Source of the DNA: Erysipelotrichaceae bacterium
Lineage (GTDB): Bacteria; Bacillota_I; Bacilli_A; Erysipelotrichales; Erysipelotrichaceae
Assembly (NCBI GenBank): GCA_030604855.1
Contig: JAUVVC010000002.1
Location: 90,001 to 122,000 of the forward strand
Length of the DNA stretch: 32,000 nucleotides
Direction of reading: 5' to 3'
Notes under the pieces: generated by a model
What the model was told of the DNA's origin: nothing
The model's database searches: none
The model's input: the letters and a program-made list of their open reading frames with translations, nothing else
Position numbers and translations under genes: made by a program
Shown here: in pieces, positions 8,433 through 25,830 of the stretch
Layout of the letters: every line of letters starts with the position of its first letter
Position numbering within the stretch: position 1 is the first letter of the stretch

Positions 8433-8660
8433 ATGTTAGAACAAATCAAAAACGTCTTAGTAAACGCAATCCATGTCGATGCCGACTTAATTAAACCAGA
8501 AGCGAAATTAAAAGAAGATCTTGATATTGATTCATTGTCAGCGGTTGAGCTTGCGCTTGAATTGGAAACCAGCTTCGATATTCGCATCGAAGATGAAGAA
8601 CTTTTGAAACTCATCACTGTGCAAGACGTTGTGGATATCGTCGAACGTAAAAAGGCTTAA
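8433..8660 (+). CDS. acpP: Acyl carrier protein
   Basis: 75 aa with DLDIDSLSAVELALELE (the DSL phosphopantetheine-attachment serine). ATG at 8433 follows an AAGGAGA SD. The 5' extension in the track ORF (from 8331) covers the promoter and is rejected. Confidence 0.9.
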   Translation: MLEQIKNVLVNAIHVDADLIKPEAKLKEDLDIDSLSAVELALELETSFDIRIEDEELLKLITVQDVVDIVERKKA

Positions 8661-8674: not shown

Positions 8675-9094
8675 ATGGATACGAAACAACTCGAAACCAT
8701 TCTGGCTCTGTTTGAGAAGAGCACAGTCAGTGAGATGGAGCTGGAAAGCGAAACATTCAAACTCAAGCTGAAACGAAATACCGAAATCCATGAAGTGCCT
8801 GTCAAACCTACGATTGCACAAGCACCACAGCCCACAACTGTTGTGGACACTGCACATTGGGTCAAAGCCCCTTTGGTGGGAACGTATTATCATTCTGCCA
8901 ATCCAGATGCGAAGCCTTATGTGGAAGTTGGACAAAGCGTTAAAGAAGGTCAGGTCATCTGCTTGATCGAAGCCATGAAAGTCATGAATGAAATCAAAGC
9001 GGACCGAAGCGGTGTGGTACAAGAAATCAAAGCAATCAACGGCAAGATGGTTGAGTACAACCAAGCGCTTGTTCGCATCGGAGATGCACCGTGA
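8675..9094 (+). CDS. accB: Acetyl-CoA carboxylase biotin carboxyl carrier protein
   Basis: 139 aa with a C-terminal lipoyl/biotinyl domain and CLIEAMKVMNEI (the biotinyl-Lys AMK motif). Confidence 0.92.
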   Translation: MDTKQLETILALFEKSTVSEMELESETFKLKLKRNTEIHEVPVKPTIAQAPQPTTVVDTAHWVKAPLVGTYYHSANPDAKPYVEVGQSVKEGQVICLIEAMKVMNEIKADRSGVVQEIKAINGKMVEYNQALVRIGDAP

Positions 9095-10461
9095 TTCAAA
9101 AGATTCTCATCGCGAATCGGGGTGAGATCGCCGTACGCATCATTCGTGCCTGTAAAGATTTAGGCATCCAAACCGTTGCCATCTATTCCACGGCCGATCA
9201 AAGTGCCTTGCATGTCCAACTTGCGGATGAAGCGGTGTGTGTCGGTGAAGCCAACAGCAAAGACAGTTATCTAAATGTAAACAATATTCTTTCAGCGGCT
9301 TTATTGACGCATGCGGATGCGATTCATCCAGGTTTTGGATTTCTTGCGGAGAATGCCTCCTTTGCCCGTTTGGCTCAGGCTTGTGGTTTGATCTTCATTG
9401 GACCCAACCCAGAGATCATCGATTTGATGGGCAATAAAATCAATGCACGGATTGCTATGCACAAAGCAGGTGTCCCTTTGATTCCCGGATCTTTCGAAGC
9501 CATCCCTTCACTGGAAGAAGGCCTAAAGACGGCACAAGAGATTGGTTATCCAATCATTTTGAAAGCTGCAGCGGGCGGTGGGGGACGTGGCATCCGGATC
9601 ATTTTGGATGAAGTGGCTTTTCGTCAAGCCTATCCTGTGTTGAAACAAGAAGCCAAAAATTACTTCAACGATGATGCCTTGTATATGGAGAAGCTGTTCA
9701 CATCGGCAAAACACATTGAAGTTCAAATCCTTGGGGATCAGTTTGGGAATGTGATCCACTTGTATGAGCGGGATTGTTCCTTTCAAAGACGACACCAAAA
9801 GATGATCGAGGAAGCACCTTGCCATTTGTTGAATGAAACACAGCGTAAGGCCTTATGTGAGGATGCTTTGAAAGCAGCCAAAGCAGTAGGTTACGACAGT
9901 GTGGGAACCATTGAATTCTTAATGGATGAGAACTTCAACTATTATTTCATGGAGATGAACACACGGATTCAAGTCGAACATCCTGTAACCGAGATGATCA
10001 CAGGTGTCGACATCGTCAAAGAACAGATCCGCAGCGCCGATAAACAGAAGTTGAGTTACCAACAAAACGATATCAAGATTCTGGGTCATGCCTTGGAATG
10101 TCGCATCATTGCGGAAGATTATCGCCATGATTTCAAACCTTCCATTGGGAAAATCAGTTTCTATCATGCCCCTGGGGGTAAAGACATCCGTGTGGACAGC
10201 GCTTTGTATACCAATTATGAATTGTCGCCCTTTTATGATTCCATGATGGCTAAGATCATCAGTTTTGGACCTTCGCGTCTACATGCCATCAAACGCATGC
10301 GTTCCGCATTGGAAGAAACCATTATCGAAGGTGTGGAAAACAATCTTGAATTCTGTTATTTCACATTATTCAATCCACAGTTTGTCGCAGGTCGCTATAC
10401 TACGGACTTTGCTAATGCTTGGATCAAGGAGTTAAATGAACGTGAATCTACCCTTTCATAA
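9091..10461 (+). CDS. accC: Acetyl-CoA carboxylase biotin carboxylase subunit
   Basis: 456 aa with ILIANRGEIAVRIIRA, an ATP-grasp glycine loop KAAAGGGGRGIR and EMNTRIQVEHPVTE. The GTG start overlaps the accB stop (GTGA). Confidence 0.95.
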   Translation: MIQKILIANRGEIAVRIIRACKDLGIQTVAIYSTADQSALHVQLADEAVCVGEANSKDSYLNVNNILSAALLTHADAIHPGFGFLAENASFARLAQACGLIFIGPNPEIIDLMGNKINARIAMHKAGVPLIPGSFEAIPSLEEGLKTAQEIGYPIILKAAAGGGGRGIRIILDEVAFRQAYPVLKQEAKNYFNDDALYMEKLFTSAKHIEVQILGDQFGNVIHLYERDCSFQRRHQKMIEEAPCHLLNETQRKALCEDALKAAKAVGYDSVGTIEFLMDENFNYYFMEMNTRIQVEHPVTEMITGVDIVKEQIRSADKQKLSYQQNDIKILGHALECRIIAEDYRHDFKPSIGKISFYHAPGGKDIRVDSALYTNYELSPFYDSMMAKIISFGPSRLHAIKRMRSALEETIIEGVENNLEFCYFTLFNPQFVAGRYTTDFANAWIKELNERESTLS

Positions 10462-11314
10462 ACGAAAAGAACGTTTGAATCTGTTTCAAACTCTTTTTGG
10501 TAAAAAGAAAAATATCAAAGTCAGTTCCAGTGAGATGAACATCGAAATGTGTCCACACTGTTCAACGGCCATTGAAAGTCAAGCGTTGAAGGCACAGCAA
10601 TATGTATGTGCACAATGCAATCATCATTTTCCTTTGAGTGCGTATGAACGGATTGATGCTCATTTCGATGCGGATAGTTTCATTGAAATCTATGCGAAAG
10701 CCAACAGCAACCAGCTCAGCTCTTTTCCCGATTACTTGAATAAATTGACCAAGTATAAGAAACAAACGGATCTTAACGAAGCGGTGGTCGTGGGTACGGC
10801 TCGCATCGCCAATCAGAAAGTTGCGCTTGCGATCATGGATAGTCGTTTCATGATGGGAAGCATGGGTCAGATTGTCGGTGAGAAAATCACACGCATCATT
10901 GAATTGGCGGATCGACGTAAATATCCTCTGATCATCTTTACGGCATCTGGTGGAGCACGCATGCAAGAGGGCATCCTGTCTTTGGTTCAAATGGCCAAGA
11001 CCAGTGCGGCCTTGGAACGATTTCATCAAAACAAGGGTCTCTATATAAGTATTCTGACCCATCCGACAACGGGTGGTGTCAGTGCGAGTTTCGCGATGTT
11101 GGGAGATATCATCGTGGCGGAACCCAAAGCCTTGATTGGTTTTGCAGGACGACGTGTCATTGAGAAAACTCTCCAGGAACAATTACCGGAAGATTTCCAA
11201 AGTGCAGAATTCCTCAAAGCCAAAGGTTTTGTCGATAAAATCGTGCATCGAGGTTCATTGCGAACATTTTTAATTCAAATCTTAAAATTGCATTCAACTG
11301 AGGTCAAGGTATGA
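10436..11314 (+). CDS. accD: Acetyl-CoA carboxylase carboxyltransferase beta subunit
   Basis: N-terminal Zn ribbon CPHC...CAQC, and GGARMQEG of the carboxyltransferase domain. AAGGAG SD. Overlaps the accC end by 26 nt. Confidence 0.92.
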   Translation: MNVNLPFHKRKERLNLFQTLFGKKKNIKVSSSEMNIEMCPHCSTAIESQALKAQQYVCAQCNHHFPLSAYERIDAHFDADSFIEIYAKANSNQLSSFPDYLNKLTKYKKQTDLNEAVVVGTARIANQKVALAIMDSRFMMGSMGQIVGEKITRIIELADRRKYPLIIFTASGGARMQEGILSLVQMAKTSAALERFHQNKGLYISILTHPTTGGVSASFAMLGDIIVAEPKALIGFAGRRVIEKTLQEQLPEDFQSAEFLKAKGFVDKIVHRGSLRTFLIQILKLHSTEVKV

Positions 11315-12111
11315 AGAATCTAAGCGCTTGGGAACGCATCACGATCGCGCGTTCACAGAATCGATTGAAAGCCTTGGATTTGATTCCTTATCTTTTCGAT
11401 CATTTCGTCGAGTTTCATGGGGATCGTCTGTATGGTGATGATCGTGCTTTGGTGGGCGGTCTGGGGAGTTTCGAAGGTCAAGCCGTTACGGTTTTAGCCC
11501 AATCCAAGGGACGCAATCTTGAGGAGAATCTTAGTTGTAACTTTGGGATGTTGCATCCTGAGGGGTATCGTAAAGCCATGCGTTTGGCGAAACAAGCCGA
11601 AAAATTCAATCGACCGATCATAACGATCATCGATACGGCAGGTGCTTATCCAGGTAAAGAAGCAGAAGAACGCGGTCAGGCAGAAGCCATTGCGCAATGC
11701 TTGAGACTCTTTGCTCAAATCAAAGTTCCTGTGATTGCCATGGTTCTCTCCGAAGGGGGGAGTGGTGGTGCTTTGGCCTTGAGTGTTGCGAATAAAATTT
11801 ACATGCTTGAAAACGCTGTGTATTCGATTCTCTCTCCAGAAGGCTTTGCCAGCATTCTTTGGAAAGATGAGACGCGGGCCAAGGAAGCGGCTGAACTTAT
11901 GGAATGTACCGCCTTTGATTTACACGCCAAAGCCTTCATTGATCGCATCATTGAAGAAGCGGATCAAGGCTTGGAAGCAAATCCTTTACACAGCATCGTT
12001 CAGATCAAAGATGCGATCCGCCAGGATCTGAGTGCTCTGAAGAAAATGAAGCTGAATGTGATGTTGGAACAACGTTATCAGAAGTTTAGAAAGATGGGGT
12101 CGCAATTATGA
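11311..12111 (+). CDS. accA: Acetyl-CoA carboxylase carboxyltransferase alpha subunit
   Basis: 266 aa with IDTAGAYPG and GEGGSGGALA-type motifs (here SEGGSGGALAL). ATGA overlap with accD. Confidence 0.92.
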   Translation: MKNLSAWERITIARSQNRLKALDLIPYLFDHFVEFHGDRLYGDDRALVGGLGSFEGQAVTVLAQSKGRNLEENLSCNFGMLHPEGYRKAMRLAKQAEKFNRPIITIIDTAGAYPGKEAEERGQAEAIAQCLRLFAQIKVPVIAMVLSEGGSGGALALSVANKIYMLENAVYSILSPEGFASILWKDETRAKEAAELMECTAFDLHAKAFIDRIIEEADQGLEANPLHSIVQIKDAIRQDLSALKKMKLNVMLEQRYQKFRKMGSQL

Positions 12112-13076
12112 ACATCGAGATCATCGGTTATGGTTTGGCCCAAGCCGAGAAATGTGTCACCAATCTAGACCTTTCGAAGTCGGTGGATACGAATGATGCG
12201 TGGATCCAAGAGCGTACCGGCATCAAGCAACGTTATTTCAGTGTTGCAAAGAATACCTCCGATTTGGCGAGTGAAGCAGCTTTGATGGCCATCCAGGATG
12301 CTCAAATCGATCCCAAGACGATTGACTTGATTCTTGTGGCGACCATCACACCCGATGGCATGATGCCCAGTGTCGCAAGTCTGGTTCAAGCCAAATGTGG
12401 TTTGAATGCTCAGACCTGTTTGAGCTATGACATCAATGCGGCTTGTACCGGCTTTGTGGTGGCCATGCAAAACGCACAAGCCATGCTTGAAGCAGGTTAT
12501 GTAAGCAATGCCTTGGTGATCGGAGCGGAAACGTTGAGCAAGATTCTGGATTTCAAGGATCGGACAACCAGTGTTTTGTTTGGCGATGGGGCGGGTGCGA
12601 TCATCATGCGTCGATCTTCATCCAAGAAAATGTTTCATTATCTACGCAGTGAGGGAGACCTTACCGGTGTTTTGACCAGTGATGGTCTCAGCTTGAATCC
12701 AGAAATGGTATTTGATCAATCATCCACGCATTATCTTCGCATGCAAGGTCAAGCGGTATTCCGTTTTGCGGTCAAAGCCATCGAAGATGTGCTTGTGAAT
12801 CTACTCAATAAACAGGATTTGAAGGTGGATCAAATCGATTGGATCGTTCCTCACCAAGCCAATCGCCGCATCATTGAATATGTCGCAAATAAAATGAACA
12901 TCGAACTTACGAAGTTCTATTTGAATTTAGATCAGTATGGCAACACATCTTCTGCAAGCATTCCCATTGCCTTGAGCGAAATGAGGACAAAGGGCTTGCT
13001 TAAAGAAGGCATGCGTGTCATTTGTGTTGGCTTCGGGGCTGGATTGACCTGGGGCGGAAGCTACTTCGAGAGCTAA
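12108..13076 (+). CDS. fabH: 3-oxoacyl-ACP synthase III
   Basis: Catalytic triad contexts NAACTGF (Cys), VPHQAN (His) and YGNTSSASIP (Asn). ATGA overlap with accA. Confidence 0.93.
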   Translation: MNIEIIGYGLAQAEKCVTNLDLSKSVDTNDAWIQERTGIKQRYFSVAKNTSDLASEAALMAIQDAQIDPKTIDLILVATITPDGMMPSVASLVQAKCGLNAQTCLSYDINAACTGFVVAMQNAQAMLEAGYVSNALVIGAETLSKILDFKDRTTSVLFGDGAGAIIMRRSSSKKMFHYLRSEGDLTGVLTSDGLSLNPEMVFDQSSTHYLRMQGQAVFRFAVKAIEDVLVNLLNKQDLKVDQIDWIVPHQANRRIIEYVANKMNIELTKFYLNLDQYGNTSSASIPIALSEMRTKGLLKEGMRVICVGFGAGLTWGGSYFES

Positions 13077-13084
13077 GGAGCGTT

Positions 13085-14032
13085 ATGTTAAATCAATTGT
13101 TAAAAATTAAGTATCCGATCATTCAAGGAGCGATGGCAAACATCGCTACCGCAAAATTCGCGGCAGCTGTATCCAATGCTGGAGCCTTGGGTGTCATCGG
13201 AACAGGCGCGATGACGCCTGAGATGGCACGTGCTGCCATTGATGAATGTCGTAGCTTGACCGATCGACCTTTTGCGGTGAATGTGATGCTTATGAATCCG
13301 CACAGCGATGCCATCATGGACATCATCTGTGAACTCAAACCAGCCGTCGTCACCACCGGTGCCGGGAATCCGGGCAAGTACATTGAAAAACTGAAAGCCC
13401 ATGGAATACTGGTTGTCCCCATCGTCCCAACCGTAGGTTTGGCACGTCGCATGGAACAAGCCGGTGCGGATATGTTGATCGTTGAAGGCACGGAGGCCGG
13501 AGGACATGTGGGTGAACTCACCACCATGGCTTTGGTTCCTCAAGTCGTCGATGCGATCAAGATTCCAGTCATCGCAGCTGGCGGCATTGCCGATGGACGC
13601 GGATATGTGGCGGCTTTGGCTTTGGGGGCCATTGGCGTTCAAGTCGGAACCTGTCTATTGGTTGCGGATGAATGTCCGATTCATGAAAACTATAAACAAG
13701 CCATTTTGGATGCGAAAGACACCGATACGGTCGTGACCGGCCGCAGTGTTTCGGCACCCGTTCGCATCAAGAAGAATGCGATGAGTCAGAAATATCTGAA
13801 ACTCGAACAAGCCGGTGCGGTTCGTGATGATCTTGAGAAATTGACCCTTGGTTCGCTTCGTAAAGCGGTCTTTGATGGTGACATGGAAAATGGCTCCGTC
13901 ATGATGGGTCAGATCGCAGGCATGATCAAAGAACGCAAGTCCTTGGCTCAGATCTTTGCAGATATGACAAATGACGCCAGACACATATATAAAAGTATCG
14001 AGACCCATGTGAATGGAGAGGATCATGCTTAA
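13085..14032 (+). CDS. fabK: Enoyl-ACP reductase II (FMN-dependent, NPD/TIM-barrel family)
   Basis: Collinear with my recollection of S. pneumoniae FabK: YPIIQGAMA, TTGAGNPGKY, EGTEAGGHVG, PVIAAGGIADG and GSVMMGQIAG. ATG at 13085 follows an AAGGAG SD. The track 5' extension overlaps fabH and is rejected. Confidence 0.88.
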   Translation: MLNQLLKIKYPIIQGAMANIATAKFAAAVSNAGALGVIGTGAMTPEMARAAIDECRSLTDRPFAVNVMLMNPHSDAIMDIICELKPAVVTTGAGNPGKYIEKLKAHGILVVPIVPTVGLARRMEQAGADMLIVEGTEAGGHVGELTTMALVPQVVDAIKIPVIAAGGIADGRGYVAALALGAIGVQVGTCLLVADECPIHENYKQAILDAKDTDTVVTGRSVSAPVRIKKNAMSQKYLKLEQAGAVRDDLEKLTLGSLRKAVFDGDMENGSVMMGQIAGMIKERKSLAQIFADMTNDARHIYKSIETHVNGEDHA

Positions 14033-15071
14033 GCTTGATCAACTCCGTGTGCCTTTGATTCAAGGTGGGATGGGGATCGGAGTCTCCTTGGGTAATCTTG
14101 CAGGTCATGTGATGCTAGAAGGGGGTTTGGGTGTGATCTCAGCCGCTCAGCCTGGCTATCGTGAAGCAGATTTCTATCAAAACACCATCGAGGCCAATCT
14201 ACGTGCGCTTGAAAAGGAAGTTACCAAGGCACGTGAAATCAGTCAAGGCAAAGGACTCTTGGGCATCAACGTTATGGTGGCGGCAGAAGATTATGATCGT
14301 TACGTCAACGCCATCAGTCAAATGGACATCGATGTGATCATCTCCGGTGCAGGCTTGCCTTTGGAACTGCCAAGTTTGGTGGGCGAATCCAAAGTCGCCT
14401 TAGCTCCGATCATTTCAAGCGCGAAAGCAGCCTTTCTCTTGTGTAGGCGTTGGTTTTCAAGAAGTCAACGTTTGCCGGACCTATTGATCATCGAAGGACC
14501 TTTGGCGGGTGGCCATCTCGGTTTTTCCTGGTCCGATTTGAAAGAAGAAAAAACGCAAGATCTTGCGAGCATCCTAGAAGAAGTGTTAGTGGTGTTAAAA
14601 GATCAAAATTGGGACATTCCTGTCTTTGTGGCAGGGGGTGTTTATACCGCAGAGGACATCCAAAACTATTTGAATCAAGGTGCACAAGGTGTGCAGATGG
14701 CGACGCGCTTCATCGCAACCCATGAGTGTGATGCGGATATACAATTCAAACAAGCATTCGTGAATGCCAAACAAGCGGATATACGTTTCGTCATCAGTCC
14801 TTCGGGCTATCCAGGTCGTGCGATCAACAATCCGCTTGTGGATACTTTGATGCGTGATGAGAAAGTCAAAGTCAAACGCTGTGTGAACTGTTTGAAACCG
14901 TGCAACCCGGCAACGACACCGTATTGCATCACAGAAGCTTTGATCCATGCGGTCAAAGGGAATGTACAGGACGGTTTGATCTTTACCGGAACCAATGGCT
15001 ATCGCATCGATAAGATCGTATCTGTAAAAGCGTTGATTGAAGAACTGTTTCCAAGTGAGGTAAGCGCATGA
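14025..15071 (+). CDS. Second NPD-family (nitronate monooxygenase/FabK-like) flavoprotein with a C-terminal 4-Cys motif; candidate FabX-like enzyme
   Basis: 348 aa with PLIQGGMGIGVS, EGPLAGGHLG and VAGGV FMN-barrel motifs, plus CVNCLKPCNPATTPYC (CX2CX3CX7C, nt 14880-14927), which is absent from the adjacent FabK. The ATG at 14025 overlaps the fabK stop by 8 nt. Confidence 0.8.
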   Translation: MLKLDQLRVPLIQGGMGIGVSLGNLAGHVMLEGGLGVISAAQPGYREADFYQNTIEANLRALEKEVTKAREISQGKGLLGINVMVAAEDYDRYVNAISQMDIDVIISGAGLPLELPSLVGESKVALAPIISSAKAAFLLCRRWFSRSQRLPDLLIIEGPLAGGHLGFSWSDLKEEKTQDLASILEEVLVVLKDQNWDIPVFVAGGVYTAEDIQNYLNQGAQGVQMATRFIATHECDADIQFKQAFVNAKQADIRFVISPSGYPGRAINNPLVDTLMRDEKVKVKRCVNCLKPCNPATTPYCITEALIHAVKGNVQDGLIFTGTNGYRIDKIVSVKALIEELFPSEVSA

Positions 15072-15988
15072 AAATCGCCTTTCTCTTCGCGGGTCAAGGT
15101 TCGCAAGTCGTCGGTATGGGCCAAGATGTCTATGCCAAGTATCCAAAGGCACAAGCAATCTTTGATCAAGCGAACTGTGACTTCGATGTCAAAGATGTCT
15201 GTTTCAACGGTCCACAAGAACGTTTGAATCAGACTCAATATACACAGCCATCTTTATTGATTACTTCACTCGCTCTCGCAGAAGCGCTGGCGAGTGAGGG
15301 CATCCTTGCGGATGTGTGTGCAGGTTTAAGTTTAGGGGAGTACAGTGCTTTGTGTTATGCGAGATCACTTGATGTGGATCAGGCCGTCGATGTGGTGGTA
15401 AAGCGAGGTCGTTTGATGCAGGAAGCATTACCTGCAAAAACCAGTGGGATGGCAGCTGTCTTGAGTTCGGATATTCAAAGCATCCAAAAGATCATCGAGG
15501 CGTGTCAGATGGAGCTCAAAGAAGTCCTTGAGATTGCGAACTACAACAGTCCCAGTCAAACGGTGATCAGTGGGCAGAAAGCCATCCTTGATTTGGCGAT
15601 CAAACGTCTCAAAGAAGCTTCGATGCGCGTTCTACCACTGAATGTGTCAGGAGCATTCCATACTTCGCTCTTGAAAGAAGCTGGAAATCATTTGAATCAG
15701 ATCCTACGATCCACAAGCATCAAGACAGCTCAGATTCCTGTTCTGTTCAATGTCAGTGGGGAAGAAGAAAAGGATGTCGTATCGGCCTTGACACGTCAGA
15801 TTTCCAGTTCCGTGCAATGGGTTCGAACCATTGAGCAGATGCTTGAAATGGGCGTCGAGGTGTTTGTGGAAATCAGTCCCAAGCCTACCTTGGATAAACT
15901 GGTCAAACAGGTCCGTCCAGATGCTCAGGTGTATACCGTCGCTGATGTGAAGAGCATCGAAGCGTTGAAAGGAGTTCTCCATGGGTAA
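15068..15988 (+). CDS. fabD: Malonyl-CoA:ACP transacylase
   Basis: FAGQGSQ, GLSLGEYSAL (active-site Ser) and GAFHTS motifs. ATGA overlap with the upstream gene. Confidence 0.93.
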   Translation: MKIAFLFAGQGSQVVGMGQDVYAKYPKAQAIFDQANCDFDVKDVCFNGPQERLNQTQYTQPSLLITSLALAEALASEGILADVCAGLSLGEYSALCYARSLDVDQAVDVVVKRGRLMQEALPAKTSGMAAVLSSDIQSIQKIIEACQMELKEVLEIANYNSPSQTVISGQKAILDLAIKRLKEASMRVLPLNVSGAFHTSLLKEAGNHLNQILRSTSIKTAQIPVLFNVSGEEEKDVVSALTRQISSSVQWVRTIEQMLEMGVEVFVEISPKPTLDKLVKQVRPDAQVYTVADVKSIEALKGVLHG

Positions 15989-16718
15989 TCCCGTATGTAT
16001 CGTTACCGGCGCGACCGGTGGCATTGGTCAGCAAATTGTCCTTGATTTTGCGAAACAAGGTTATGATGTGGTGATCAATTACAGTAAGAATGAAACAAGT
16101 GCCAAAGTTTTGGCTACGCAATGCCAAGCCATGGGTGTTCAAACCCTGGTCTTGGGCTTTGATGTGTCCAACAGCGTTGAGGTAGAGACCAACATCAAAA
16201 AGGTTGTCGATACGTTTGGACGCATCGATGTCCTCATCAACAACTCAGGCATCACACGTGATGGTTTGGTCTTAAGAATGTCGGATGCGGATTTCGATGA
16301 TGTGCTGCGCATCAATCTGAAGGGTGCCTTCAATTGTTCGAAGGCTGTGCTTCGATACATGTTCAAAGCACGCCAAGGACGCATCATCAATATGAGTTCC
16401 GTCATTGGTTTGATTGGCAATCTTGGTCAAGCGAACTATGCGGCGAGCAAGGCTGGACTGATTGGTCTGACCAAATCGTTGGCAAAAGAAGTCGCCAGTC
16501 GAAACATCACGGTCAATGCAATCGCTCCGGGTTTTATTGAAACACCGATGACGGAAGTATTGAGCGACGAGATCCGAGTGCAGATATTGAAACAGATACC
16601 AGTGGGTCGTTTCGGTAAGGTGGAAGATGTGGCACACTGTGCTTTGTTTCTAGCGAGTGAGCAAGCGAATTATATCAATGGACAAGTCATCCAAGTTGAT
16701 GGCGGAATGGTGATGTGA
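15981..16718 (+). CDS. fabG: 3-oxoacyl-ACP reductase (SDR)
   Basis: TGATGGIG Rossmann motif, NNSG, YAASKAG catalytic YxxxK, GQVIQVDGGM tail. 8-nt overlap with fabD. Confidence 0.93.
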   Translation: MGNPVCIVTGATGGIGQQIVLDFAKQGYDVVINYSKNETSAKVLATQCQAMGVQTLVLGFDVSNSVEVETNIKKVVDTFGRIDVLINNSGITRDGLVLRMSDADFDDVLRINLKGAFNCSKAVLRYMFKARQGRIINMSSVIGLIGNLGQANYAASKAGLIGLTKSLAKEVASRNITVNAIAPGFIETPMTEVLSDEIRVQILKQIPVGRFGKVEDVAHCALFLASEQANYINGQVIQVDGGMVM

Positions 16719-17962
16719 TGAAAAGACGAGTCGTGATAACGGGGATGGGAACCGTCAATCCCATAGGTAATGATGTGCAAAGCATGTGGGCAGCGATTCA
16801 AAATAAGGTGTGTGGGATCGATCTCATTCAAGCTTTTGATACAAATGAGTATAAAGTGAAATTGGCCGCAGAGGTCAAGGATTTGGATGTGGATGCGTAT
16901 TTCACGAAACGTGAAGTTCAGTTCAACGATCGTTTCACCATGTTTGCCCGTGTTGCAGCGAAACAAGCGATGGCGGATGCGAAACTGTTGGATTGTGAGA
17001 TCAATCGGGATCGTTTTGGCGTCATCATCGGCTCTGGCATCGGTGGTTTGGCTTCACTTGAGAATGCGAAACAAAATCTCAACGATCGTGGACCCAGCCG
17101 TATCTCGCCATATTTCATTCCGATGACCTTGATCAATCTTGCGGCTGGTCAGGTTGCGATCGATGTTCAAGCCAAAGGATTGTGTTCATCCGTTGTGACG
17201 GCTTGTGCAGCCGGAACCAATGCGATCGGCGAAGCGTTTCATAAGATTCGCGATGGTTACCAAGAAGTGATGTTGGCAGGGGGGAGTGAAGCAGCCATCA
17301 CACCTTTGGGCATTGCCGGTTTCATGGTCATGCGTGCGCTCCATATGGGTGAAGATAAAAACAACGCAAGCATTCCCTTTGATGAAAAACGCAGTGGTTT
17401 CGTCATGGGAGAAGGTGCGGGAGTTTTGGTTCTGGAAGACTTGGATCATGCGCTTAAGCGCAATGCGAACATCCTTGCGGAAATCGTGGGTTATGGAAGC
17501 AGTTGTGATGCCCACCACATTACGGCACCGATCGAAGATGGTTCCGGAGGTGCTCAAGCCATGATCAATGCTTTGGAGGATGCCTCTTTAAAACCAGAAG
17601 CAGTGGACTATATCAATGCGCATGGGACGAGTACCCCTTTGAACGATAAAACGGAAACCAAAGCTGTCAAACTAGCATTCAAGGAACATGCCTATAAACT
17701 GGCGATGTCTTCGACGAAATCTTTCACAGGTCATCTTTTGGGTGCGAGTGGTGCGGTTGAGGCCATCATTGCCGTTAAAGCCATTCAAGATGACTTAATT
17801 CCTCAAACCTTGAATACTAGCACTCAAGATGTCGAATGTGATTTGGATTGTGTCGTTGGTGCTTCACGAGAAACGAACGTGGATGTGGTCATGTCCAATT
17901 CACTGGGCTTCGGTGGACACAATGCCTCCATCATTTTAAGGAAATATAAATATGTTGTATAA
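16715..17962 (+). CDS. fabF: 3-oxoacyl-ACP synthase II
   Basis: [14 protein letters not shown] (active Cys), AHGTSTP and GHLLGASG motifs. The start is GTG 16715 or ATG 16718, overlapping the fabG stop. Confidence 0.93.
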
Positions 17963-18380
17963 CATCGAACAGATCAAAGCAATCATCCCACATCGTTATC
18001 CCTTCTTATTGATCGATCAAGTGGATGCGATCGAAGCCGATGGAACGATTGTGGCTCGTAAAGCCGTAAGCATCAATGAACCCTTTTTTCAAGGTCATTT
18101 TCCCAGTGTCGCCGTCATGCCTGGGGTCTTGATCGTGGAGGCCTTGGCCCAAACAGGGGCTGTGTTGCTCCTATCGCAAGAAGCCTTCAAAGGTCAGATT
18201 GCCTATTTTGCAGGCATCGATCAAGTCCGCTTCAAACAAATCGTTCGACCTGGGGATGTCCTGATGCTTAAAGTCAAACTGACAAAACAACGAGGATCCA
18301 TTGGTTTCGCCCATGCGGAAGCGCATGTCGATGGGAAAATGGTTTGTACGGGTGAATTGATGTTCAAGGTAGGGGCTTAG
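17952..18380 (+). CDS. fabZ: 3-hydroxyacyl-ACP dehydratase
   Basis: 142 aa with [11 protein letters not shown]-type N-terminus ([11 protein letters not shown]), FQGHFP...[11 protein letters not shown] hot-dog motif. 11-nt overlap with fabF. Confidence 0.93.
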
Positions 18381-24618: not shown

Positions 24619-25830
24619 ATGTACAACACACATGAAATCACACCGGGTTTGCATTGGATCGGAGGCAACGATCGTCGTTTGGAACGTTTCGAGAATCTTT
24701 TTCCTTTGCGCTTTGGGGTCGCTTATAATTCTTTTTTAATCGTCGATGAAAAGACCTGCCTAATGGATACGGTCGATTTATCCATCAGCCAACTGTATTT
24801 AGAGAATGTCGAACATGTCTTGAATGGTCGCAACTTGGATTATCTCGTGGTTAATCACATGGAGCCCGATCATTGCGGCAACATCGAATCGATCATTCGA
24901 CGGTATCCGGATGTACGTTTCATCGGCAATGCGAAGACCTTTCAGTTTTTTGAGCAATTCTATGGCTTTGATGCACGCAAGAACTATCAAATGGTCAAGG
25001 ACCAAGAAGAGCTTGATTTAGGCTCGCGGACCTTACGCTTCTATACCGCTCCGATGGTGCATTGGCCAGAGGTCATGATGACCTTGGATGTGACGAATCA
25101 CATTCTCTTCTCCAGTGATGCTTTTGGTACATTTGGAGCGCATAATGGGACGTATTTTGCGGATGAGATGGACTATCGTCGGGATCATTTGGATGAAGCA
25201 CGTCGTTATTATGCCAACATCGTGGGTAAATTCGGCGTACCTGTTCAGGGCATCATGCGTAAGCTGTCCAATGAAATCATCGAGATGATCTGTCCTTTGC
25301 ATGGACCGATGTATCGAGGCGAAGAACTGGCTTTGATTTTGGATAAGTATGAGAAATGGTCGCATTACATTCCTGAAAACAACAGTGCGCTCTTGATCTT
25401 TGGAACCATGTACAACAACACTGAGAATGTCGTGGATGCCTTGGCGACCCGTTTGGGACAATTGGGTGTCCGTAACATGCGCATCTATGATGTGTCGGAA
25501 CACGATCCATCGTATCTTGTGGCGGAAGCATGGAACTACAGTCATATCATCATTGCGTCACCGACCTACAATACGGGATTGTTCTACAAGATCGATGGTT
25601 TGTTGCATGAACTTGTCAGTTTGAATCTTCAGAATCGGAAGTTCTCCGTGGTTGTCAATTCAACCTGGGGAGGTCAGACGTTGGAGCAATTGCTTGAACA
25701 GATCGGTAAGATGAAGAACACTTCGATTGTTGGGGAACCTTTATTGATCAAGTCGACCTTGAAAGATCACAACATGCTTGAGCTTGAAGCCTTGGCAAAG
25801 GATATTGCCGCATCGATATTGAATGAATGA
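24619..25830 (+). CDS. Flavodiiron protein (FprA-type; metallo-beta-lactamase-like domain plus flavodoxin-like domain)
   Basis: Di-iron motif NHMEPDHCG (HxExDH), and a C-terminal flavodoxin-like domain (LIFGTMYNNTE). GTGAGGAAA SD. Confidence 0.88.
   Translation: MYNTHEITPGLHWIGGNDRRLERFENLFPLRFGVAYNSFLIVDEKTCLMDTVDLSISQLYLENVEHVLNGRNLDYLVVNHMEPDHCGNIESIIRRYPDVRFIGNAKTFQFFEQFYGFDARKNYQMVKDQEELDLGSRTLRFYTAPMVHWPEVMMTLDVTNHILFSSDAFGTFGAHNGTYFADEMDYRRDHLDEARRYYANIVGKFGVPVQGIMRKLSNEIIEMICPLHGPMYRGEELALILDKYEKWSHYIPENNSALLIFGTMYNNTENVVDALATRLGQLGVRNMRIYDVSEHDPSYLVAEAWNYSHIIIASPTYNTGLFYKIDGLLHELVSLNLQNRKFSVVVNSTWGGQTLEQLLEQIGKMKNTSIVGEPLLIKSTLKDHNMLELEALAKDIAASILNE

Follow-up and report, generated by a model that had tools for sequence, protein, structure and literature searches.

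A FabX/UfaA-type flavoprotein gene in the fatty acid synthesis operon of an Erysipelotrichaceae bacterium, a probable source of the cis double bond

In Helicobacter pylori, FabX (HP0773; structures 7E1Q, 7E1R, 7E1S and 9LT5) is a protein with FMN and a [4Fe-4S] cluster that acts as a decanoyl-ACP dehydrogenase and as a trans-2 to cis-3-decenoyl-ACP isomerase, and it is essential for unsaturated fatty acid (UFA) synthesis in that species (PMC8626469). A preliminary description of the locus reported here had placed FabX at the start of anaerobic UFA synthesis; the term holds for the type of pathway but not for the enzyme itself, which in vitro depends on O2 to accept its electrons (PMC8626469). 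In PMC11300592, which cites Isabella and Clark (2011) on this point, the Neisseria gonorrhoeae protein UfaA (NGO1024) is described as essential for anaerobic UFA synthesis and as a FabX homologue that shares about 36% of its residues with a Bacteroides FabX. FabX-like homologues with conserved cysteines and FMN residues have been described in anaerobes as well, namely C4N14_08920 of Fusobacterium nucleatum (PMC11091888) and HMPREF1077_RS10180 of gut Bacteroidales (PMC11300592). The FabX/UfaA family is the obvious candidate for introducing the cis double bond in clostridia-like anaerobes, and our literature search found no biochemical or genetic test of any Bacillota FabX homologue. The origin of that double bond in such organisms has reportedly been in question since the labelling work of Goldfine and Bloch. 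For Clostridium acetobutylicum the enzyme was described as "novel and unknown" as late as 2009, FabZ being without isomerase activity and FabF being able to replace both FabB and FabF of E. coli (PMC2700279).

The window, i.e. the whole 32,000-nucleotide stretch of Erysipelotrichaceae DNA that was analyzed, carries a fatty acid synthesis operon on the plus strand, where all features given below are located. Its upstream portion consists of acpP (8433..8660; NF002148, 71.8 bits), whose 75-aa product is the presumed substrate carrier, and of accB, accC, accD, accA and fabH (8675..13076). Two tandem NMO-family (PF03060) genes follow, flanked by fabH and fabD: fabK, encoding enoyl-ACP reductase II (13085..14032), and the gene under study (14025..15071), whose 348-aa product (PF03060, E 7.9e-54) is predicted to consist of an FMN TIM barrel and a C-terminal [4Fe-4S]-type subdomain. 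Directly downstream are fabD and fabG (15068..16718), then fabF (16715..17962; TIGR03150, 585 bits), which is the genome's only KAS I/II gene and presumably elongates the cis-3 intermediate, and fabZ (17952..18380; NF000582, 189 bits), the genome's only FabA-like hotdog gene. The tandem arrangement with an 8-nt overlap agreed with what had been described before, with the second gene starting at ATG 14025 and fabK stopping at TAA 14030-14032. A Shine-Dalgarno sequence, GGAGAGG, was read directly at 14015..14021 within the 3' end of fabK, and at the other end of the gene its TGA stop and the fabD start overlap as ATGA (15068-15071). An alternative in-frame start, ATG 14013, was judged less likely because it has no Shine-Dalgarno sequence and because the length of 348 aa is shared by a homologue with 93% identity. 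For fabK, the longest ORF begins at TTG 13022, and the start is probably ATG 13085, behind AAGGAG.

The first of the two genes, earlier described as collinear with S. pneumoniae FabK, is a genuine fabK, with matches to FabK of C. difficile (7L00, E 8.6e-106) and of S. pneumoniae (2Z6I, E 5.9e-85). Its score on the FabK equivalog model TIGR03151, 423 bits, is under the cut-off of 453.1, and its identity rests mainly on these PDB matches. A prediction of a complex between the two paralogues, made from two alignments, scored 0.00, which we count neither for nor against an association, and among the related loci compared the adjacency of the two genes was not kept outside the source lineage.

The second gene keeps the motifs QGGMG, AGGHLG and VAGGV, and its product is only 26% identical to the neighboring FabK. 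A HMMER search of the PDB matched it best to FabX (7E1Q/9LT5) with 263 bits (E 3e-77) over residues 7-341, whereas the best FabK structure reached 65 bits (E 1e-17 or worse); identity to H. pylori FabX is approximately 41%. Its AlphaFold (AF2) model (pLDDT 95.2) was aligned by Foldseek to FabX 9LT5 and 7E1Q with TM of 0.87 and 0.83, and to FabKs with 0.73-0.75. In a phylogenetic tree, 110 FabX-like sequences were separated from 31 FabK sequences with a support of 100, and the window protein fell into the FabX-like group. On TIGR03151 it scored 104.5 bits against the cut-off of 453.1, which does not support FabK membership, and this was the only match in NCBIfam, which has no FabX-specific model. 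Its label in databases is nitronate monooxygenase or NAD(P)H-dependent flavin oxidoreductase. By sequence and predicted fold, the product of 14025-15071 belongs to the FabX/UfaA family, a known family to which it adds a new member.

Residues that define FabX were located by mapping the HMMER/PDB alignment to the residues named in PMC8626469. The peptide CVNCLKPCNPATTPYC, encoded at 14880..14927, bears four cysteines (C286, C289, C293 and C301) in a CX2CX3CX7C arrangement, the counterpart of FabX cluster ligands C300, C304, C308 and C320. An alignment of this motif with the FabX ligands had been suggested as a check, and C289, C293 and C301 aligned exactly with C304, C308 and C320, while C286 and C300 were one residue out of register in the pairwise alignment and shared a single cysteine column in the multiple alignment. 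The spacing was found in all of 120 close homologues, and the four columns were filled in 109-110 of the 110 FabX-like members and in none of the 31 FabKs, which have gaps in three of the columns and T or G in the fourth; the earlier observation that FabK lacks the clustered cysteines was thus borne out. In FabK, the NAD(P)H-binding part occupies the place of the Fe-S subdomain of FabX (PMC8626469).

The remaining functional positions gave a similar picture. His164 (codon 14514..14516, within AGGHLG), the counterpart of FabX catalytic His182, was invariant in an alignment of 46 sequences and in all 110 family members. FMN residues N99, E175, Q240 and T243 of FabX correspond to N82, E157, Q224 and T227, and glycines G22, G23, G25, G180 and G221 to G14, G15, G17, G162 and G205. 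A basic helix with K134, R141, R142 and R146 (14424..14462) is the counterpart of the ACP-docking residues K152, K159, R160 and R164 on FabX alpha-7, which are conserved among FabX homologues and not in FabK (PMC8626469). Lysine or arginine was present at positions 134, 141 and 146 in 108, 96 and 88 of the 110 FabX-like members, where the FabKs show A/G, a gap and M/L, respectively; position 142 is variable across the FabX family, with R in 20 of 110. As for the substrate tunnel, FabX L101, V305, I321, L325 and F339 correspond to M84, L290, I302, L306 and F320. FabX T130 is replaced by Leu.

The genome of this bacterium is 96.2% complete, which means that gene absences are not absolute. Within it, the fabZ of the operon was the single match to PF07977, with no FabA or FabN paralogue, and fabF was the one KAS gene beside one weak thiolase-like match, with no FabB. 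No member of the ECH family (PF00378), to which FabM would belong, and no membrane desaturase of the FA_desaturase family (PF00487) was found; the desaturase search covers PF00487, the acyl-ACP desaturase model PF03405 having been left out as its control was silent. The operon had been described as having one fabZ, one fabF and no fabA, fabB, fabM or fabN, and this extends to the whole genome, in which the FabX homologue is the sole candidate double-bond enzyme found. The host looks like a gut-type anaerobe: cytochrome bd and UbiA/MenA were not found in the genome, which carries a flavodiiron-type O2-scavenging protein. The organism might also import unsaturated fatty acids from its own host or from the diet.

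Among 150 genomes of the same order, the gene was present in 83 and FabZ in 86, in nearly identical sets, with one FabZ in each genome, located 3-4 kb from the FabX homologue, whose operon position is conserved across the order. Using a 15-sequence alignment as query, we obtained 80 loci from Clostridium, Lachnospiraceae, Peptostreptococcaceae, Anaerovoracaceae, Dialister and Prevotella, and in 44 of them fab or acc genes adjoin the FabX homologue. In some Lachnospiraceae loci fabZ comes immediately before it, and many lineages have kept a true FabK next to it. A fusion of a FabZ-like and a FabX-like part was seen in one representative protein, P0224. Records under the names Thomasclavelia, Faecalibacillus, Blautia, Dorea, Dialister and Prevotella contain homologues approximately 40-55% identical to the protein.

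Sequence and fold, which place the protein in the family, the conservation of all FabX-defining classes of residues, the constant position within the fab operon and the finding of no rival pathway together point to the gene encoding a FabX/UfaA-type FMN and [4Fe-4S] acyl-ACP dehydrogenase/isomerase, the branch-point enzyme of UFA synthesis in this organism, to which we assign a probability of about 0.8. Support for the Fe-S flavoenzyme proposed earlier comes from the cysteine alignment, bit scores, fold model, tree and genome content. Its activity, its chain length and above all its electron acceptor are inferred, and the following route was drawn by analogy with H. pylori FabX. A medium-chain acyl-ACP (C10, possibly C12) would dock through the ACP helices on K134, R141, R142 and R146, and its acyl chain would enter a tunnel between FMN and His164, ending at the Fe-S cluster of C286, C289, C293 and C301. 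His164 and FMN would then take hydrogens from C2 and C3 to give trans-2-enoyl-ACP, which would be converted to cis-3-enoyl-ACP, or the enzyme could start directly from trans-2-enoyl-ACP supplied by FabZ. The cis-3 product would be extended by the single FabF, and monounsaturated chains would be finished by FabG, FabZ and FabK. The two electrons would exit FMN singly via the cluster, which lies near the surface. The known electron route of FabX is not transferable to this host, because the H. pylori enzyme needs O2 and no cytochrome bd or UbiA/MenA was found here; the acceptor would not be a quinone-linked chain, and O2 is unlikely in a gut-type anaerobe.

This electron balance bears on a variant of the main reading, tentative and not exclusive of it, in which the protein is a redox-neutral isomerase that converts FabZ's trans-2-decenoyl- or trans-2-dodecenoyl-ACP to the cis-3 form, with a structural or redox-poising cluster and no external acceptor. 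Acyl/enoyl couples are too positive for the reduction of NAD+ or ferredoxin according to acyl-CoA dehydrogenase thermodynamics, and the same would be expected of ACP thioesters; together with the finding of no quinone-linked chain in the genome, this would favor such an isomerase. FabX has been reported as a bifunctional dehydrogenase/isomerase (PMC8626469), and both the Lachnospiraceae loci with fabZ directly 5' of the homologue and the fusion in P0224 are in line with a substrate supplied by FabZ. A conserved cluster alone is no proof of electron export, because most cysteine mutations of FabX destabilize the protein, with loss of FMN. However, the conservation of the four cysteines throughout a very large family is consistent with a working redox center, and the N. 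gonorrhoeae homologue, in the secondary account of it, is reported to depend on an electron acceptor.

The gene could otherwise encode a second enoyl-ACP reductase, receiving electrons through the Fe-S cluster and perhaps differing from the neighboring NAD(P)H-dependent FabK in chain length or reductant. This had been offered as a fallback in the preliminary description, and it has in its favor that superfamily, catalytic His and FMN site are common to both proteins, that the reaction is chemically reversible, and that in F. nucleatum a FabK inhibitor had an approximately 8-fold higher MIC when the FabX homologue was overexpressed (PMC11091888). We consider it unlikely, however, given the score far below the FabK equivalog cut-off, the position in the FabX clade of the tree and the 263 versus at most 65 bits in favor of FabX; moreover, a genuine FabK is already adjacent here, and is kept beside the homologue in many lineages, and the organism would be left with no double-bond enzyme. 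Highly improbable is an NMO-family oxidoreductase apart from the double bond, e.g. one for detoxification of nitronates or small molecules, left in the fab operon by historical accident, a reading suggested by the database labels and by the sub-cut-off FabK match in an NCBIfam with no model for FabX but opposed by the operon position kept across the order, the near one-to-one co-occurrence with FabZ, the fab genes adjoining it in distant Clostridia, the ACP-docking residues that are conserved unlike in FabK, and the acyl-ACP substrate of its closest characterized relative.

If the gene is a FabX/UfaA-type branch-point gene, as we believe probable, two sub-questions are raised by it, namely which molecule takes up the electrons where O2 and quinones are lacking and what chain length the enzyme acts on. 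One speculative answer, which we hold with low confidence, is that in strict fermenters without O2 use or quinones the FabX clade with CX2CX3CX7C and a short insert may be a redox-neutral isomerase or may recycle electrons within fatty acid synthesis, e.g. to enoyl-ACP via FabK, and may act at C12 in addition to C10. In Erysipelotrichaceae cultured in rich medium, omega-9 monoenes (18:1 w9c) are reported among the major fatty acids (PMC7543727), and action at C12 would explain them. If true, this would identify the long-sought anaerobic double-bond enzyme of clostridial type together with a new way of balancing electrons. The locus shows the FabX homologue as a fixed member of the core fab operon across an order and, in many Clostridia, as a neighbor of fab genes, and the double-bond question therefore becomes directly testable. 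Annotation pipelines still name FabX proteins nitronate monooxygenases. The six taxa under whose names homologues of approximately 40-55% identity are recorded are known from gut and host-associated habitats, and off-target effects of FabX-directed drugs on commensals are a concern. The case for FabX as a drug target specific to H. pylori has been made on the view that its homologues are rare in human-associated bacteria (PMC12079444).

Compared with known systems, the window protein shares with H. pylori FabX the fold (TM 0.87), the best sequence match, the catalytic His, the FMN ligands, the docking helix, most tunnel residues and the four cysteines, and like that of H. pylori (PMC12079444), its genome was found without FabA, FabB and FabM. 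It differs in the cysteine motif, which is CX3CX3CX11C in H. pylori, so that the last two cysteines are separated by a loop of 11 residues there and of 7 here, and in a shorter helical insert near FabX residues 54-75, where tunnel residues F74 and Y75 align to gaps. Because of the shorter insert, the change of T130 to Leu and the shorter loop, substrate length or ACP handling may differ. H. pylori FabX also uses O2 and gives superoxide, whereas the host of this gene looks like an anaerobe, with neither cytochrome bd nor MenA found in its genome. UfaA, likened here by its description, has a proposed O2-free role that relies on an electron acceptor, and the same situation is expected in this organism, but Neisseria respires nitrite anaerobically and no quinone-linked chain was found here. 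The F. nucleatum and Bacteroidales homologues, studied by overexpression phenotypes only, are not described as being inside a fab operon, unlike this one, which lies between fabK and fabD, a location that also sets it apart from H. pylori FabX. With FabK, which acts on acyl-ACP, the protein has in common the NMO TIM barrel, FMN, the GGH histidine and the fab-operon location, and it is distinguished from FabK by the cysteine motif and by its low identity to the FabK encoded next to it.

The fatty acid synthesis genes of the window form a tight single operon on the + strand, in the order acpP-accB-accC-accD-accA-fabH-fabK-second NMO-family gene-fabD-fabG-fabF-fabZ-plsC. The second NMO-family gene (hereafter fabX) runs from an ATG at 14025 to a TGA at 15071 (+ strand), encodes the 348-aa protein P0001, and is preceded by the Shine-Dalgarno sequence GGAGAGG (14015-14021, +). 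Since the TAA of fabK lies at 14030-14032 (+), the 8-nt overlap of the pair noted in the preliminary description is real, and ATGA is common to the fabX stop and the fabD start. P0001 contains the FMN-barrel motifs QGGMG, AGGHLG and VAGGV, is 26% identical to its FabK paralogue, and carries the cysteine motif CVNCLKPCNPATTPYC, encoded at 14880-14927 (+); the observation of a divergent paralogue with its barrel motifs intact is confirmed.

The first NMO-family gene is a genuine FabK, scoring 423 bits with model TIGR03151 and matching the FabKs of C. difficile (E 8.6e-106) and S. pneumoniae (E 5.9e-85). Its longest ORF starts at TTG 13022, which implies a 55-nt overlap with fabH; by the FabK model and by homologues the start is instead ATG 13085, 8 nt from the fabH stop and preceded by AAGGAG at 13075-13080.

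P0001, in comparison, almost certainly belongs to the FabX/UfaA family. In a HMMER search of all solved structures, its best matches were H. pylori FabX entries (7E1Q/R/S, 9LT5 and others; 263 bits, E 3e-77, residues 7-341), followed by FabK structures at 65 bits or less. An AlphaFold2 model built from a 46-sequence alignment (mean pLDDT 95.2) also retrieved FabX first with Foldseek (TM 0.87/0.83, 41% identity), against 0.73-0.75 for FabKs. When 110 FabX-like proteins and 31 FabKs, drawn from the same loci and from database representatives, were placed in one tree, the two sets separated with support 100, and P0001 fell within the FabX-like set. P0001 reached 104.5 bits on the curated FabK equivalog model, whose cut-off is 453.1, and no NCBIfam model fitted better. 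NCBIfam release 20 has no FabX/UfaA model, and source databases call FabX-like proteins "nitronate monooxygenase" or "NAD(P)H-dependent flavin oxidoreductase", an annotation gap that concerns thousands of genomes.

The cluster ligands of FabX (C300, C304, C308 and C320), its catalytic H182, and its FMN, ACP-docking and tunnel residues have been named (PMC8626469), and their equivalents were counted along the HMMER pairwise alignment. H182 corresponds to P0001 H164; the FMN contacts N99, E175, Q240 and T243 to N82, E157, Q224 and T227; and the tunnel residues L101, V305, I321, L325 and F339 to M84, L290, I302, L306 and F320. ACP-docking residues K152, K159, R160 and R164 correspond to K134, R141, R142 and R146, and ligands C304, C308 and C320 to C289, C293 and C301, which align exactly. 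C286 falls one residue after C300, because the spacing is CX3C in FabX and CX2C in P0001. With the extra residue handled as an insertion, the multiple alignment placed the first cysteine in a single column (109 of 110 family members) and the other three in all 110, and none of the four occurred in any of the 31 FabKs, which upholds the claim that FabK lacks them. Both the CX2C and the CX3C register are common in the family: in a set of 150 representatives clustered at 50% identity, CX2CX3CX7C occurred in 38, CX3CX3CX7C in 43 and the Helicobacter-type CX3CX3CX11C in 5. All 120 close homologues had CX2CX3CX7C.

Other sources of the double bond were searched for in the host genome (1.62 Mb, 96.2% complete). 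The single fabZ and fabF of the operon proved to be the only FabA-like domain and the only KAS I/II gene, apart from one weak thiolase-like match. No enoyl-CoA hydratase family gene, and therefore no FabM, was found in this genome, nor any membrane desaturase, and fabK and fabX were its only NMO-family genes at any strength. Neither cytochrome bd nor a UbiA/MenA prenyltransferase was found there. A 403-aa protein encoded in the window at 24619-25830 (+) joins an ODP-family metallo-beta-lactamase domain to a flavodoxin domain C-terminal of it, as do the flavodiiron O2/NO reductases that are typical of anaerobes. As a whole, the gene content looks like that of an anaerobe that lives by fermentation and lacks a quinone chain.

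Named near homologues of P0001 occur in Faecalibacillus and Thomasclavelia, which makes Erysipelotrichales the probable order of the host, and near-identical operons occur in metagenome contigs. In 150 evenly drawn genomes of the host's order, a homologue was present in 83 and FabZ in 86, nearly identical sets, with exactly one FabZ in nearly all carriers and the two genes 3-4 kb apart. All but one (G132) of the 64 genomes without FabZ also lacked the FabX homologue; these 64 are therefore presumably fatty-acid auxotrophs. Many of them are 1.2-1.7 Mb, a pattern that points to fatty acid synthesis having been lost repeatedly in this lineage. There are few exceptions. In two fragmented genomes of one genus (G031:C65 L105; G138 L106, L108), fabD apparently comes directly after fabK, fabX is missing, and another NMO paralogue of FabK size lies elsewhere, whereas fabX is kept in sister species; in another genus, two genomes (G074, G147) have FabZ and no NMO-family gene whatsoever. 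One genome of the host's family, G056, has two FabX-like genes (G056:C1:794891-795904 and G056:C1:1119569-1120600) along with two FabZ genes; the members of each FabX-FabZ pair are separated by about 3-4 kb, suggesting two fab clusters in this genome.

A sample of 301 genomes at the level of the class contained 72 with a homologue, spread over 13 of 29 families, and the protein family comprises 386 representative clusters at E <=1e-30. Fab or acc genes adjoined the homologue in 44 of 80 loci from named genomes, which span Clostridium, Lachnospiraceae, Peptostreptococcaceae, Oscillospiraceae, Anaerovoracaceae, Dialister, Prevotella and Desulfobacterales, among others. In Clostridium it is divergent from fabH-fabK-fabD-fabG-fabF-accB-fabZ, in Lachnospiraceae it lies after accA or between fabZ and fabH, and in Anaerovoracaceae such as Eubacterium nodatum the gene order is exactly that of the window. 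One database representative, P0224 (503 aa), fuses an N-terminal FabA/FabZ-like hotdog domain (E 9e-22) to a FabX-like domain and, if real, would be a Rosetta-stone link to the dehydratase step. In five others (P0128, P0175, P0202, P0253, P0265), each a representative cluster, a MarR-family winged-helix domain of about 160 aa precedes the FabX-like part; these could be fusions of FabX with a FabT-like regulator of fab genes, or simply merged gene calls.

The best reading of P0001 is a predicted FabX/UfaA-type Fe-S flavoenzyme, as the preliminary description proposed; it is supported by homology, by the conserved residues, by linkage within the operon and by the lack of alternatives in the host genome. 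We put at roughly 0.8 the probability that the host's double-bond enzyme is P0001. We infer its reaction, chain length and electron sink: P0001 would provide the cis-3-enoyl-ACP that the single FabF elongates. In C. acetobutylicum, FabF substitutes for FabB and FabF alike, and FabZ is incapable of isomerisation (PMC2700279). In H. pylori FabX, the electrons of FMN reach O2 by way of the cluster (PMC8626469), and PMC11300592 describes the Neisseria homologue as active anaerobically with an unknown acceptor. Since no quinone chain was found in the host, the acceptor would be trace O2 or some protein, or none if P0001 only isomerises the FabZ product.

UfaA was reportedly described in 2011 and FabX in 2016. 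The 2021 description of FabX mentioned homologues in 7 phyla (PMC8626469), and homologues are recognised in print in Fusobacterium (PMC11091888) and Bacteroidales (PMC11300592). In our literature search, no study was found that tests a homologue from Bacillota or that reports how constantly it sits in the fab operons of Erysipelotrichales; P0001 is therefore an additional member, new to an already known family. Its identity will not surprise a lipid specialist, and the locus opens the old clostridial double-bond question and the anaerobic electron-acceptor problem to direct test. Compared with H. pylori FabX, P0001 has a shorter helical insert, so that tunnel residues F74 and Y75 lie opposite gaps, a Leu at the T130 position, and a Cys3-Cys4 loop shorter by four residues.
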